IMG/VR virus record: IMGVR_UViG_3300028327_000004
Span: 3,713 to 67,712 of that record
Strand: one strand, 5' to 3'
Length of the DNA: 64,000 nt
Source of the DNA: a virus
Taxonomy: Duplodnaviria; Caudoviricetes
Notes under the pieces: generated by a model
Database searches by the model: none
The model's input: the letters and a program-made list of their open reading frames with translations, nothing else
Told to the model about the DNA's origin: nothing
Part shown: positions 3,570-29,607 of the stretch, piece by piece
Position numbering within the stretch: the first letter of the stretch is position 1
How the letters are laid out: each line of letters begins with the position of its first letter
Made by a program: the position numbers and the translations under genes

Positions 3570-4702
3570 TCCCTTATATTTATGAACAGCGAATCATACA
3601 GGCTGTCCATGTTTTGCACCGTCTTACGGGCATGAAAACGTTTTAGATAATTGCCGCGCCATGACTGGTAGCCTACCCGGAGATCCGCATAACTCATTTT
3701 TCCGGCGTCTATAAGTTTCCGGAAGCATTTCAGTTTCCGGCGCATCCGTTTCGCGGAATCCTTTGTAGGCTTTTTCAGTATCCTCCCGTTTTCTTTAAGG
3801 TAGTATTTCCCTTTCAGGAATAACAATCCTTCCTTCAAAGGGAAAATCCTCGTTTTCCTTTCGTGAACCGTTATTCCCAGATTATTGCATATAATTTTAA
3901 TTTTTTCAAGGCAATTTTCTAAAAATTCTTTGCTGTTATGGATTAAGTACAAATCATCCATGTAGCGGCCGTAAAATTTCACCCTCATTTTTTCTTTAAT
4001 GGCGTGATCAAGTTCGTCAGGGAGGAAAATAGCGAATATCTGCGATACCTGGCTGCCCAATCCCAGGGAAACGCCGTCCCCGAACGGCTGAATAAACCGC
4101 CTCGCAAGATCCAAAACGCGTACATCGCGCACTTTTCTCTCCACGCGGTTCATAAGGATATCATGCCGGATGCTGTCAAAGTATTTTTTGAAGTCAATGG
4201 TAAGGGCGTACCCCTCGTTTGAAAACCCGTTCTGCCGGTAGAACCTCGTCAAATGGGTGATGAGGCGCCGCATGGCGAAATGCGTCCCTTTCCCTTTCAC
4301 GGAAGCGCCGTTGTCATATATGAGCGAATTACAAAGTATCGGGACAAGAACCTCGTCGCATAATGTTTTTTGTATGACGCGTTCCGAAATATGGACGCTC
4401 TTTATGTGCCGCACCTTGCCGCGTTCGTTCAGGATAAACTCCACAAACCCGTTCTGCACGTTTTCCCCGGCTTCAAGTTTCAGTTTTGTTTCCCAGAGGT
4501 TTTGAAATAAATTCATCTCATAACGCTGTGTGGATTCCTTCCAGGAAACGCCCCGTTTCGCCAGCCGGAACGCTTTAAGCAGGTTATTGGGATCCGTCAG
4601 GAGGGAAAAATCGTCATATTGGTCCAGTTTGTCGCGGCGTTTTTTCCTGCGTTCCGATATCCGCCGCTGGTACCTGGCCGCCTTCCTTTCTTCGCTTGTC
4701 AT
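3566..4702 (-). CDS. DGR reverse transcriptase
   Basis: YMDD catalytic motif (YGRYMDD), LGLGSQVSQ DGR-type motif, DFKKYFDSI; no maturase/endonuclease domain; likely start MTSEERK with AAGGAG RBS. Confidence 0.96.
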   Translation of the reverse strand: MTSEERKAARYQRRISERRKKRRDKLDQYDDFSLLTDPNNLLKAFRLAKRGVSWKESTQRYEMNLFQNLWETKLKLEAGENVQNGFVEFILNERGKVRHIKSVHISERVIQKTLCDEVLVPILCNSLIYDNGASVKGKGTHFAMRRLITHLTRFYRQNGFSNEGYALTIDFKKYFDSIRHDILMNRVERKVRDVRVLDLARRFIQPFGDGVSLGLGSQVSQIFAIFLPDELDHAIKEKMRVKFYGRYMDDLYLIHNSKEFLENCLEKIKIICNNLGITVHERKTRIFPLKEGLLFLKGKYYLKENGRILKKPTKDSAKRMRRKLKCFRKLIDAGKMSYADLRVGYQSWRGNYLKRFHARKTVQNMDSLYDSLFINIRE

Positions 4703-24950: not shown

Positions 24951-25075
24951 TAAAAAAAGCCAGCAGAGATTGAAGGAGGATAGAATCCTTGCCCAATTTC
25001 TGCTGGCTCCGCTTTTCGGTCTGCCAAAATATATTGTCTACTCTGGTTATAAACCCATAGTCATAGATCTGTCAA
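24951..25075 (-). promoter_or_regulatory. Promoter-leader-intrinsic terminator unit B
   Basis: TTGACA(25070-25075)-N18-TATAAC; same 13-mer at 25008-25020; AGCCAGCAG/CTGCTGGCT stem plus U7. Confidence 0.7.
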
Positions 25076-25085
25076 GTATTATTTT

Positions 25086-25283
25086 TCAAATTTTATCTTT
25101 TAGGAATCTTGGGAAGCCGCCCGGGACGGTAGGGATGCTTTCCCTGTACCGTTCCCTCTTTTCCGTGATAATGTCCACAACCTTCGCGTTTTCCTGCCCT
25201 GATATCGAAATGGTGATTTTCCCGTAATCGATATCCTGGGCCGCTAAAACAACCTCGTCAACGAGTTCCTTCGTAAAATCCAT
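25086..25283 (-). CDS. Small protein, DUF2292-like
   Basis: DYGKITISI..KVVDIITEKRER pattern; GGAGG RBS. Confidence 0.55.
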   Translation of the reverse strand: MDFTKELVDEVVLAAQDIDYGKITISISGQENAKVVDIITEKRERYRESIPTVPGGFPRFLKDKI

Positions 25284-25332: not shown

Positions 25333-27285
25333 CTACTGGGCTTTGTTTACCTCTTTTAATTGTTCCGGCGTCATCGGGCTGTCGGAACGCACAACGATTC
25401 CGCTGTCTTTCATGACAAAAAACTGAATCGCGTAATCCAAATCCAGCGGCACTTTGGTCGAATGCGGATACACGACAAAACTATAGCATTCCGGCGTTTC
25501 GCTGTAAATATCGCCGATCTGGAAGCTCCATGTTTCATTAGTATGGGCATTTGTCCATGACGCGACGAGATGGCTGTTTTTCAGCGTTTCATAGGCTTTT
25601 TCTTTGGTCATCGTATTGTCCATATATAGTATATCGGCAGAATCCATACGGTCAACCTTCCTCTTTGCGTCATAGGCGGTGACTACTTTTGTAAAATCTA
25701 CCTTGGGATTGAGGATGGCGTCGTCTATCCTGAAAAAATGCAAATCCATCTTGCCGTCTTTTTCATTTACGCGGATCCTGTCCAAATAACTTTCAACTGT
25801 GGGGCCCGAACTGTTAATTTGGGGGTCAATAAACTTTATGCCGTTATTCATCCTTTCGGCTATATAGATATGGCCGTATTCGCCGCTGTCATCGGAGAAT
25901 TTCTGGAAAACGGCGAACCGCGCCCCGTCCCCGAACCTCATAAGCCTTGAAACAAGCTGATCCCTGCCTTCCGGCGCCCTTTCCATCCTGCGGCTGACAA
26001 AACACTCATAACCGTTTTTTATCGGATCGTTTTTCCTGTTTAACGGGGCCGGCATCGCGGTAACCGTATACCCGCGCCTTTGGAGCTCATACGCGACTAC
26101 GCTCCTCTGGCAATTGTTTTTATAGCCGGGGGTTTTGTAATCGTTGTGTATATTCGCGTTTCGTTTTGACGAGATCCAGCCATTCGCGTCTTCCTGTGTT
26201 ATGCCTAACTGCGTTTCTATCAGCGGCGACCTTAATCCGCGTTCTGGCGGATCTTCCGTTTCGGACGTGTCGCTTCCGGAAGGTTCGGCGTCGGAGGCGC
26301 CGGCGACGTACCCTTCCATTTCGTCTATTTCCCGGTCCACCTCATCGATTAGCTCATCCCAGTATGACAGCGCGGTACACCGGCATTGGATGTCCTGCCC
26401 TGGGTGTTCCTGCGCCCAGTCTGCCGGCCGCGGCTTCCATGTTTTCCCGCCGTCATCAGAATAAACCGTTGGATCGTCCCATCGGCAGATCACGCCTTCC
26501 AGATCCGCATGGGAATCGCGCACCCTTTCATCCGCGACCGTTGACCATTCGTACATTTCAAGGCCTACCGCCTGCATGCGCGCCTGTGTAATCTGGCCGT
26601 TAAGCTTTCCTATCTGATCCCTGGCGATGAGGTTTACCCGGGAGGCTTCTATTTTTTTATTTATTTTGTGAATGGCCTTTGCAAGCTGCCCCGGAGACAA
26701 TCCGTTGATGATCGCTTTTTCCGCGGCGCGGTTTACCTGTTTTATGTAATCCCTGCTTACGTCCTGGATGAGCATATAATTTTCTTCCTGCCAGGCTTCC
26801 TTCATTCCAGGCCACCAGCTCTCATATACCGGGAACTCCACGCCCAGTTCCGCTTTGGCCGCCTTATTCCATTGTTCGCTGTTGAAATTGGCCAATGAAT
26901 TAGCGATGTTCCCCAGCCCCATAAAAACTATCGGCGGAGCATCCCGCGTTCCGCTTTCCTTAATCGGCGGCAAATAAGTCGAATACCAGCCGTTAAGGGA
27001 TCGCACCATGCGGCGGTATGAACCGCCCGGTATTTCATCCTGTCTCATAAGGGCGGCGGAGTCGCCGCGGAGAATCGCCTCGGAATTATTTTTAATATAA
27101 GTATTGACATAATCCTGCATGGGCTTGATCCACGCGCGGATCGCTTTCGCGTAATGCTTTTCGGTAGCCCAGGGGTACAACCAGCGCGTTCTTTTCCGGG
27201 GCTTCCCTCTGGCGGCCCTTCCCATTTTTACGCGTCTGGCAAACAGGGCGGCTTTAAGCCCTATACGTCCGGAAGTAGATATCAT
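25333..27285 (-). CDS. MuF minor head protein with papain-fold (Tox-PL-like) toxin domain and fused C-terminal module
   Basis: MuF motifs ARDQIGKLN, DERVRDSH, HPGQDIQCRC; toxin triad NNC / GH / IDPQ; extra 92 aa tail. Confidence 0.88.
   Translation of the reverse strand: MISTSGRIGLKAALFARRVKMGRAARGKPRKRTRWLYPWATEKHYAKAIRAWIKPMQDYVNTYIKNNSEAILRGDSAALMRQDEIPGGSYRRMVRSLNGWYSTYLPPIKESGTRDAPPIVFMGLGNIANSLANFNSEQWNKAAKAELGVEFPVYESWWPGMKEAWQEENYMLIQDVSRDYIKQVNRAAEKAIINGLSPGQLAKAIHKINKKIEASRVNLIARDQIGKLNGQITQARMQAVGLEMYEWSTVADERVRDSHADLEGVICRWDDPTVYSDDGGKTWKPRPADWAQEHPGQDIQCRCTALSYWDELIDEVDREIDEMEGYVAGASDAEPSGSDTSETEDPPERGLRSPLIETQLGITQEDANGWISSKRNANIHNDYKTPGYKNNCQRSVVAYELQRRGYTVTAMPAPLNRKNDPIKNGYECFVSRRMERAPEGRDQLVSRLMRFGDGARFAVFQKFSDDSGEYGHIYIAERMNNGIKFIDPQINSSGPTVESYLDRIRVNEKDGKMDLHFFRIDDAILNPKVDFTKVVTAYDAKRKVDRMDSADILYMDNTMTKEKAYETLKNSHLVASWTNAHTNETWSFQIGDIYSETPECYSFVVYPHSTKVPLDLDYAIQFFVMKDSGIVVRSDSPMTPEQLKEVNKAQ
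25628..25655 (-). promoter_or_regulatory. Internal sigma70-like promoter inside the MuF ORF
   Basis: TTGACC-N16-TATACT just upstream of in-frame ATGs at 25623 and 25611. Confidence 0.6.
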
Positions 27286-27576: not shown

Positions 27577-28056
27577 CTACCTTCCACAACAATGTTTATA
27601 TTTTTTGCCGCTTCCACACAGGCAGTATTCGTTGCGCCCCTGTTTTGTTTCAGAACGTGTCGCAGGGACGGGGAGTATTTTGCCGCCGTCATATAACCAG
27701 CGGCCTTCATGTTTTTTGAAATAAGCCATTTCATGATGGACGTTGTTAAGCCGCCCCTGTTCGTAAAAGGCCTTGAATCCAACCCGGCCGGCATCTTCGC
27801 TAATAATTTCAGAAAGAATTATCTCAAGCCCCGTCCATTTTGAAGTCTCGCTCCATTTTTTTATGCTGTCTCGGTCGATGGTTTCCTTATCCCCAAAGCA
27901 GGTGTCAACAATGTAATCGATTTCGTGTAACACATAGGCGGTGTAGCGGCTTCGCATAAGGGCTTCCGGGGTAGGCGCTATTTCTTTGCCGCTGATATAC
28001 GGCTTGCAACACTTTGAATATAATTTGCCTGAACCGCAAGGGCATTTCTCAAACAT
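27577..28056 (-). CDS. YchJ-family SEC-C motif protein
   Basis: CPCGSG..CC, TPEALMRSRYTAY, WLYDGG, GRNEYCLCGSGKKYKHCC. Confidence 0.9.
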   Translation of the reverse strand: MFEKCPCGSGKLYSKCCKPYISGKEIAPTPEALMRSRYTAYVLHEIDYIVDTCFGDKETIDRDSIKKWSETSKWTGLEIILSEIISEDAGRVGFKAFYEQGRLNNVHHEMAYFKKHEGRWLYDGGKILPVPATRSETKQGRNEYCLCGSGKKYKHCCGR

Positions 28057-29607
28057 TTATTCCCCCTCTTTTTGTTTTTTCTTCAGCTCTTCCAATTCTT
28101 CCTGTTCCTCTTCGGACAGTTCCTCTTTTTCTTCAAGTTCCGCTATGCGGTCCTCGGTTGACGGTTCGTCATCAGCCCCTTCCGGATTTTCTTCCTGGCC
28201 TTCCTGCGGCTCTTTAACCTCGGGCAGCGTTTTCACTTCCGGTATTAAATCTTCCGGAACGGGTATCTTATCGAGGGTGTCGCCGAATTGAAGGTAACGC
28301 GCCTCATACGGCTCCATAATTCCGGCGTTGATATAGGCCTGGTATGTGCTGGCTTTTACCTGCTCTTTGTCCGCTTCCAGTTTGTCCACTTCCGCCTGCT
28401 CTTTGGGGGAGAGCTGCTGTAGCGGCTTCCAGATGACGTAAGGCTCGGGCTTGTTTTTCCATTCTGAAATTATCCGCACCAGGCGCAGTAAAATCGGCGC
28501 CGCTTCCTTGCTCTGTTTGGACCGAACCTTGTCATAATAATTTCTCATGTCTGATTCCCCGGTAGAGTTCATTCCGGCCGGGGACACGCCGAACAGCCGC
28601 GTTATGGGGATTTGCGTACACGATGACACCAGCATGAATATGACGTGCAATACTTCCGGAACGCCGGCAAAGCTCACGTTCTCCCTGATGAAATCATCTT
28701 CCTTGTCAAAATACATGGAATGGAAAACGCTTTTTGTTAAGTCCATAACCTCGACACGTTTCATCATCAGGCTTTTTCCATCGGGCTGGCTGAGGATGTC
28801 CGCAAGGTCGCTCAGTTTGTATTTGCCCACGCTGAATTCGTCTAACAGGTGACTCACGCTCGCTATTGAACTGCCCACTTTCCGCAGTTTGTCCTCTACG
28901 TTCTGCAAAACGCTTACGCCCCAGTACCGCTGTTCCTTGCCGTACCGTGTGGCGCCGTCAGGTATCGGATCGCCGTGTATTTCAATCACCCTGGAATAAT
29001 GCACGTCCTTTGATTCTTCGCTGCCAAAACTGCTGATAAACTTTATTGAATAATATTCAGGCAGGCCGTACCGGGGCAGCGTGGGATCAATCTGAAACTT
29101 AATTTTTGAAAACTCGATATCGGATCTGTCGATAACTTTCAGATATTCGATATTTCTTATTTTTTTGGGGTTTAACGGCAGGCTTAAATCCTTGCCGTCC
29201 AGCGCCCCGATGAGGATAGCCGCCCCGCCGTACAGGCGCGCCCAATAAAAGGCCTCGGTTATCTTTGAAATGGCGTCTATATTTTCAAGGACCGCATTAT
29301 ACTCATCCGTCAGCTCTTCTGATTCGATTTCGTCATCATCGGGGAAATCGTATTCCCATCCTTCCCGGAACATGTCATCGGGTATCGCCTTGACAATGTT
29401 CGTGCCCAGGCCGTCATCGACAAAGATATCCTCAAGCTCTTCATCGGTCATTATTCCCGACATCCGCGCCCTGGTATGCCTCTGCTTATCCGCGGCCGTG
29501 CCCAAACCGGAAACGAGGTTCTGCCAGCCGTCCGCTTTTAATTGCCGCCTAACTTTAACGGCCTGCACTCTTGCCGCTACCGAATCCGCCGAAACATTAG
29601 CCCTCAT
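28057..29607 (-). CDS. Portal protein (DUF1073-like)
   Basis: DGWQNLVSGLG, LYGGAAI, IPITRLFGVSPAGMNSTGESDMRNYYD. Confidence 0.9.
   Translation of the reverse strand: MRANVSADSVAARVQAVKVRRQLKADGWQNLVSGLGTAADKQRHTRARMSGIMTDEELEDIFVDDGLGTNIVKAIPDDMFREGWEYDFPDDDEIESEELTDEYNAVLENIDAISKITEAFYWARLYGGAAILIGALDGKDLSLPLNPKKIRNIEYLKVIDRSDIEFSKIKFQIDPTLPRYGLPEYYSIKFISSFGSEESKDVHYSRVIEIHGDPIPDGATRYGKEQRYWGVSVLQNVEDKLRKVGSSIASVSHLLDEFSVGKYKLSDLADILSQPDGKSLMMKRVEVMDLTKSVFHSMYFDKEDDFIRENVSFAGVPEVLHVIFMLVSSCTQIPITRLFGVSPAGMNSTGESDMRNYYDKVRSKQSKEAAPILLRLVRIISEWKNKPEPYVIWKPLQQLSPKEQAEVDKLEADKEQVKASTYQAYINAGIMEPYEARYLQFGDTLDKIPVPEDLIPEVKTLPEVKEPQEGQEENPEGADDEPSTEDRIAELEEKEELSEEEQEELEELKKKQKEGE

Follow-up and report, generated by a model that had tools for sequence, protein, structure and literature searches.

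Nuclease-colicin genes carry constitutive immunity promoters inside the toxin genes. Internal immunity promoters have also been demonstrated experimentally in Vibrio cholerae, where internal sites in vasX, tseL and vgrG-3 drive tsiV1-3, the immunity genes of the T6SS (type VI secretion system; Miyata et al. 2013, PMC3857813). Among phage-encoded MuF polymorphic toxins, small open reading frames (ORFs) were found after 89% of the toxin genes (Jamet et al. 2017, PMC5576092). The papain-fold toxin family Tox-PL1 is defined by the signature NC-H-DxQ, and fusions of MuF with Tox-PL1 were described in the same study (Zhang et al. 2012, PMC3482391). That study also described Imm35, an immunity family that is specific to Tox-PL1, is sometimes fused to papain-like toxins, and was reported from Actinobacteria, Bacteroidetes, Proteobacteria and Planctomycetes (PMC3482391). 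MuF toxins with a small downstream ORF, the MuF-Tox-PL1 combination, fused Imm35 and internal immunity promoters are all already known. In this study, we analyzed a 64,000-nucleotide (nt) stretch of DNA, hereafter the window (positions 3,713 to 67,712 of the IMG/VR virus record IMGVR_UViG_3300028327_000004), in which a single ORF on the minus strand encodes a MuF-Tox-PL1 protein of 650 amino acids (aa) that continues in frame into a 92-aa tail. We give a probability of roughly 60% to the reading that this one ORF holds a self-silenced MuF toxin of a temperate phage together with a nested antidote gene under its own promoter.

Compared with the described MuF toxins, the gene has the MuF domain, the place in the head module and the shared toxin domain, and its phage appears to be temperate; a separate downstream immunity ORF was not found. 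In the literature, we found no description of the tail family, of an in-frame fusion carried by a whole clade of phage MuF toxins, or of a promoter, a Shine-Dalgarno (SD) sequence and an ATG kept in a linker.

Domain architecture and age of the fusion

The whole ORF (25333-27285; this and all gene features below lie on the minus strand) was divided, using the ORF list, Pfam, PHROGs and alignments, into a MuF domain, an acidic spacer, a Tox-PL1/Gln_amidase domain, a linker and an immunity-type tail. No stop codon lies between the papain-like domain and the tail. The MuF domain is of the SPP1 gp7-like head-protein type and occupies residues 183-305 (26371-26739). It matched PF04233 (Phage_Mu_F, E 2e-20) in Pfam, TIGR01641 (phageSPP1_gp7) in NCBIfam and phrog_324 (head morphogenesis) in PHROGs. 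The acidic low-complexity spacer at about residues 310-372 (26170-26358), which the original prediction had already placed between the MuF and papain-like domains, can be read directly from the translation and is variable in an alignment of eleven relatives (alignment A1).

The toxin domain spans about residues 375-540 (25666-26163). Residues 390-490 matched PF15644 (Gln_amidase, "Papain fold toxin 1") with 27.8 bits against a gathering cut-off of 24.1. The motifs N391-C392-Q393, G471-H472 and D487-x-Q489 were invariant in alignment A1, with the codons of Cys392, His472 and Asp487 at 26110-26112, 25870-25872 and 25825-25827, respectively. The papain-like motifs named in the original prediction (NNCQ, GH and IDPQ) are invariant among the relatives, and they agree with the Tox-PL1 signature NC-H-DxQ. 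An AlphaFold2 model of residues 341-650 showed one compact fold, with a predicted local distance difference test score (pLDDT) of 87 and a predicted template modeling score of 0.86; the pLDDT of the toxin domain was about 90. The compactness of this two-domain model is the one hint that the tail might bind and neutralize the toxin domain. The modeled toxin domain aligned with the papain-fold effectors SpvD (5lq7; Z 10.9 over 158 residues) and OspI (3w30; Z 8.3 over 143 residues), and the next structural matches were C39 peptidases and staphopains. We infer that the papain domain is toxic, with an activity of the glutamine-deamidase or peptidase type.

The tail is found in frame in other proteins as well. 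A search with residues 340-650 recovered six further proteins with the tail in frame, at 74, 60, 50, 49, 37 and 38% identity and 95-100% coverage (P0002-P0007), and four others (P0014, P0016, P0023 and P0032) came from an exhaustive search that used the tail as query. The eleven fused proteins that resulted were drawn from separate samples, and the GC content of the gene ranged from 39 to 60% across the eight lineages for which DNA was available. We checked these homologues for a stop codon between toxin and tail. The frame was open in all eleven, and the tail Met was kept in 11 of 11, which bears out the in-frame fusion first read from the single 650-aa ORF. The closest relative on a viral contig, L010 (76% identity), has an N and a missing stretch in its MuF domain (L010:3600-3960), most likely an assembly gap, and its toxin-tail part is intact.

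A fusion of a different kind was seen in L051 (L051:1945-3696; compare L038:1945-3700), where a deletion of 2 nt within the ATGA stop/start overlap makes a MuF-Tox-PL1 toxin continuous with an 84-aa partner of a family unrelated to the tail. It occurred in 1 of about 35 near-identical viral contigs and could reflect either a natural mutation or faulty assembly. This case illustrates what a one-off accident looks like, in contrast to the clade-wide fusion.

The tail itself (MTKEKAYETLK..., residues 559-650, 25336-25611) is an alpha/beta module; modeled alone, it formed a helix on an antiparallel sheet with a pLDDT of 95. The exhaustive search recovered nine free proteins of 90-98 aa that aligned from query position 13, which corresponds to the ATG at 25611, and all nine start with MT-x-(E/D)EA. 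Single proteins made of 2-4 modules in tandem also exist. The 92-aa module had been proposed as a separate immunity-type unit, and the free homologues, which start at the tail Met, support this view, as do the tandem and toxin-adjacent ones. Two other hits, P0031 and P0033, were rejected as true modules; their 9-10 short stretches match only the beta-hairpin part of the tail and represent a repeat motif. On the module tree, the fused and free forms interleaved, and well-supported branches required at least five changes, most of the free forms being on very short contigs. Because the two forms interleave, a single stop codon may have changed the pair back and forth between one gene and two on several occasions.

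Searches for a known family gave little. The tail family had no match in Pfam, NCBIfam or the PDB sequences (best PDB sequence E 0.6), and PHROGs returned only phrog_25511 (E 0.005), whose function is not known. None of 17 tail-family members matched an Imm family in Pfam at E up to 10, a profile-profile comparison with Imm35 not having been made. Foldseek found nothing in the PDB at E below 0.08. Protein atlas scores of 0.81-0.87 (NTF2-type immunity, PepSY) were below the reliability line of the atlas, and the top structural neighbors were PepSY/cystatin-like proteins with Z 5.0-6.1, within the noise range of the tool.

We also examined how the module is arranged where it is not fused. In L009, a partial ORF with a Gln_amidase C-terminus is followed by stop codons, TTGACA-17-TATTCT, GGAGG, an ATG and a free module. 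In L098, a four-module protein comes immediately after a Gln_amidase gene (E 1.5e-9), and a portal-like gene is nearby. The wider comparison covered 80 viral loci with Tox-PL1 relatives. The untailed toxins, at the loci with an identifiable toxin ORF, ended 128-158 aa after the catalytic Cys, and the fused forms 259-261 aa after it. At the untailed loci, an ORF of 54-138 aa started at, over or shortly after the toxin stop, except at three that were cut by the locus end. These small partner ORFs belong to several unrelated families at one position, and such diversity of partner families is typical of immunity genes. At 13 viral loci, the ORF that begins at the stop codon of the untailed MuF-Tox-PL1 gene, or overlaps it, was 54-76 aa long and homologous to the N-terminal half of the tail (hidden Markov model E 5e-6 to 1e-3; hhalign probability 96%, E 4.8e-9). 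Two families of small ORFs after other untailed toxins, famB and famC, had no detectable relation to the tail.

The tail family thus shows the traits of a generic immunity protein, namely a small gene directly 3' of the toxin and the existence of orphan and tandem copies. These hallmarks in unfused loci back the core of our reading, in which one ORF combines a toxin with a module of the immunity type. They also agree with the view that a separate small immunity gene is the usual MuF arrangement, which was seen in L009, L098 and the 13 untailed loci. Taken at the level of sequence and model, the domain make-up, the old and genuine fusion, and the homology of the tail to free, tandem and toxin-adjacent proteins are established, and the tail is probably an immunity or inhibitor module of Gln_amidase toxins.

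Free modules were also found in another setting. In L004 (L004:1299-2961) and L005, the free module follows an ADP-ribosyltransferase toxin (PF03496) and a 137-aa ORF at a distance of two genes. An ORF of the same length stands beside the free module in L006 and L007. This setting may be a mixed immunity or accessory-gene island.

The linker and its promoter-like site

Residues 541-558 (25612-25665) link the toxin domain to the tail and are predicted to be disordered, residues 542-556 being the only part of the 341-650 model with pLDDT <50. The linker aligned with stop codons and non-coding DNA in the unfused L009 and with the DNA upstream of the free copy in L001, and it is the equivalent of a former intergenic region in these alignments. 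Within the linker DNA lies TTGACC-N16-TATACT (25655-25628), which has 10 of 12 consensus matches. Its -35-like hexamer TTGACC (25650-25655) occupies one and the same alignment position in 8 fused lineages, and its -10-like hexamer TATACT (25628-25633), after a spacer of 16, is likewise conserved. A scan of each gene (roughly 2 kb) for its best sigma70-like site placed that site at this position of the linker in 8/8 fused lineages (tied best in the window). The site was a perfect TTGACA-N16-TATAAT (12/12) in L011 and L094, whose genes have 59-60% GC, and reached 11/12 in L093 and L095.

In a codon-resampling test on six lineages, we held the linker peptide fixed and redrew synonymous codons from each gene's own usage. 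The observed promoter score was reached in 0.1-13% of trials, with a combined Fisher P of about 5e-5 that is only indicative, because the lineages are related. The same linker DNA, with TTGATA-N16-TATACT, also precedes the free module of L001, where it lies behind an in-frame TGA and nothing toxin-like is found upstream in any frame.

The ATG of the ancestral free module (Met559, 25609-25611) is the first residue of the free homologues, and a second in-frame ATG lies at 25623. In five lineages, an SD-like sequence (GAGGA, AGGTGA or AGGAG) was found 7-9 nt before the tail ATG. In the sequences compared, the promoter-like hexamers and the tail Met are conserved across the fused lineages. The P0023 lineage carries a 36-aa insertion between the promoter-like site and the tail Met (L095:4574-4730), which would give any free transcript a leader of about 120 nt, and no clear SD is present.

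Gene neighborhood and downstream hairpin

In the window, the fused gene stands in the order portal, SEC-C/YchJ-like gene, fused gene, 65-aa ORF, DUF2213 gene, cement protein and major capsid protein, and the order is common to the homologues. The portal gene (PF06381) lies at 28057-29607 and is separated from the MuF gene by the one SEC-C/YchJ-like gene (27577-28056). The latter encodes a SEC-C motif/YchJ-like NTF2 protein, an unusual passenger in a head module; it is kept at this place in L090 and L091 and is absent from L095/L096. The window is part of a 67.7-kb IMG/VR record that is rated complete. The same record encodes, outside the window, a tyrosine integrase (PF00589, E 9e-26), which points to a temperate phage and fits the lysogenic context that the original prediction had assumed.

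Directly downstream of the fused gene in this clade lies a 65-aa ORF with a strong GGAGG (25086-25283). A small downstream ORF (65-81 aa) was present at every fused-clade locus and at none of the untailed loci compared. For the 65-aa ORF, which was also considered as a candidate for the "real" immunity gene, no family match and no link to a toxin was found. A hairpin followed by U7 at 24952-25009 (-38.4 kcal/mol, z -3.3), the first downstream of the tail and the 65-aa ORF, is likely an intrinsic terminator. Just before the DUF2213 head gene, the stretch 24952-25080 holds TTGACA-N18-TATAAC and then this strong hairpin with U7. A terminator after a promoter at this place fits attenuation.

Proposed mechanism, alternatives and known systems

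We propose that the stop codon between the Tox-PL1 domain and a downstream cognate immunity gene was lost in the ancestor of the clade. The short intergenic region would have become the 18-aa disordered linker, which would still hold the sigma70-type promoter of the immunity gene and its ATG at 25611. During late expression, the full 650-aa protein would be made, with the toxin kept inactive by the covalently attached antidote, and the fusion would be packaged at the portal like SPP1 gp7 (PMC5576092). In the lysogen, the internal promoter would give a short transcript that covers the tail and the 65-aa ORF and stops at the hairpin near 24952. By analogy with the T6SS immunity genes, this transcript could supply free antidote against toxin injected by sibling virions. 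Our guess is that the toxin would be released by cleavage in the disordered linker, through a head protease or the papain domain itself, and the conserved linker peptide could serve this cleavage. That the promoter fires, that the tail inhibits in cis and that a free 92-aa product is made are likewise what we infer. The full scheme, in which one DNA stretch acts as protein linker, promoter and start site, the antidote-bound toxin is packed and armed only after processing in the capsid or the target cell, and the prophage makes the antidote alone, is tentative and in our judgment somewhat short of even odds.

Several points weigh against a self-silenced toxin with a nested antidote gene, in addition to the relatedness of the lineages in the codon test. 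In the window alone, the promoter motif is at chance level: 11 promoter-like sites were counted in 20-32 kb against 12.9 +/- 3.5 in shuffled sequences. Its significance comes from its conservation in homologues and has no other basis. The consensus-like promoter that had been predicted in the codons before the ATGs at 25623 and 25611 thus holds good as a site, in its conservation and in its codon bias, but not from the window taken by itself. The SD before the tail ATG is degraded in the window (tggac) and likewise weak in L010, the nearest relative; the -10 hexamer lies only 16 nt (window) and 13 nt (L010) from the ATG, so that a free product would need a leader of about 10 nt. Because of the poor SD, support for such a product is weaker in the window and in L010 than it is in the homologues. 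The linker peptide is itself conserved, as (I/V)D+xDS..I.Y, and selection at the protein level, for example on a cleavage site, may explain part of the conservation of the linker DNA. The tail matches no known immunity family and no fold above noise, and most free modules are on contigs under 4 kb, several without an adjoining toxin. A covalently attached antidote also leaves the question of how the toxin ever acts.

Several of these observations would also be expected if the tail were a cis-acting inhibitory domain only, a zymogen-like safety catch from which no free antidote is made. The linker would then be a processing or docking site and the hexamers a by-product of its peptide. The conserved peptide includes a D-S within the promoter spacer, the linker has the disorder that is common at cleavage sites, and Tox-PL1 has been proposed as a releasing peptidase (Zhang et al., PMC3482391). 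The weak SD and very short -10-to-ATG distance in the window and L010, and the 36-aa insertion between motif and tail Met in L095, point the same way. However, codon choice favors the hexamers beyond what the peptide needs, and perfect consensus sites stand in genes of 59-60% GC. The same DNA precedes the free gene of L001 behind an in-frame stop and without a toxin, and in L009 the untranslated gap contains a promoter-like site. The tail Met and SD are kept, and the free and tandem forms show that the module works as a stand-alone protein. We consider a purely cis-acting tail unlikely.

Another explanation is that the pair does not serve warfare. The papain fold would then act on proteins of the host or the phage, either as an injected effector or as a head-maturation peptidase, with the tail as a partner for regulation or substrate recognition. 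It has been argued that MuF cargo of the peptidase type may have only mild toxicity and might bias the choice between lysis and lysogeny or counter host defenses (Jamet et al., PMC5576092), and a processing role for Tox-PL1 in MuF systems has been suggested (Zhang et al., PMC3482391). Among solved structures, the nearest in fold are SpvD and OspI, both of them effectors with particular host proteins as targets of modification, and some of the free modules are found among small genes in regions that contain no Gln_amidase gene. Against this, the partner has the hallmarks of an immunity gene, being small, starting at or over the toxin stop and belonging to several unrelated families at that position, and the module occurs in tandem multi-copy forms and as orphan copies. 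A role of this kind is less likely still.

An artefact or very recent accident, that is, a sequencing or assembly error hiding a stop or a stop lost lately in one phage (the alternative named in the original prediction), is highly improbable even though L051 shows that one-off fusions happen, because the tail is kept and the frame is open in eleven fused proteins that come from different samples, reach down to 37% identity and are encoded by genes of 39-60% GC, and both the toxin domain and the tail fold with high confidence.

The reading of a self-silenced toxin with a nested antidote bears on a wider question, as the action of MuF toxins and the protection of the producer and its lysogenic kin are largely unexplained and the literature consulted names few studied examples. 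The clade offers a compact test case in which the physical link to the toxin marks the antidote, so that the cognate partner does not have to be guessed, and the proposed internal promoter could be altered by synonymous changes. The analysis also defines an unannotated family of about 90 aa that accompanies Tox-PL1 toxins in free, tandem and fused forms. Finally, it gives an example of regulatory DNA that would have survived in a coding linker across genes of 39-60% GC, which is relevant to the annotation of nested genes in phages.

We compared the locus with the known systems it most resembles. The toxin domain shares its fold and Cys-His-Asp triad with SpvD and OspI, but has only 9-10% sequence identity to them and a different delivery route. 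The tail resembles PepSY/cystatin-like inhibitors (YpeB 5boi, YpmB 2gu3 and the vibriolysin propeptide 3nqz) in having a helix on a 4-5-stranded antiparallel sheet, and these are classic peptidase-inhibitor folds; with Z only 5.0-6.1 and no sequence match, the likeness is a lead only. Like Imm35 (PMC3482391), the tail is a small alpha+beta protein linked specifically to Tox-PL1 and sometimes fused to it, but 0/17 tail members match Imm Pfam models, and no retained internal promoter is described for Imm35 in PMC3482391.

The gene resembles the MuF polymorphic toxins (Jamet 2017, PMC5576092; Zhang 2012, PMC3482391) in several ways: its MuF/gp7 domain is N-terminal and encoded near the portal gene, its Tox-PL1 domain is C-terminal, its phage is temperate, and an immunity-type partner stands on the 3' side. 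It differs in that the partner is in frame across the clade instead of being a separate small ORF, and belongs to an unannotated family. The joint between the two keeps a promoter-like site and an ATG, and in most lineages an SD, and the portal and MuF genes are separated by a SEC-C/YchJ-like gene. The closest parallel for the regulation is the T6SS of V. cholerae, where the promoter also lies inside the 3' part of the toxin ORF and the antidote can be made while the toxin operon is silent, as we would expect here. In V. cholerae the immunity gene is a separate ORF, whereas at this locus the putative promoter, the start codon and the antidote would all be nested within the frame of the toxin.

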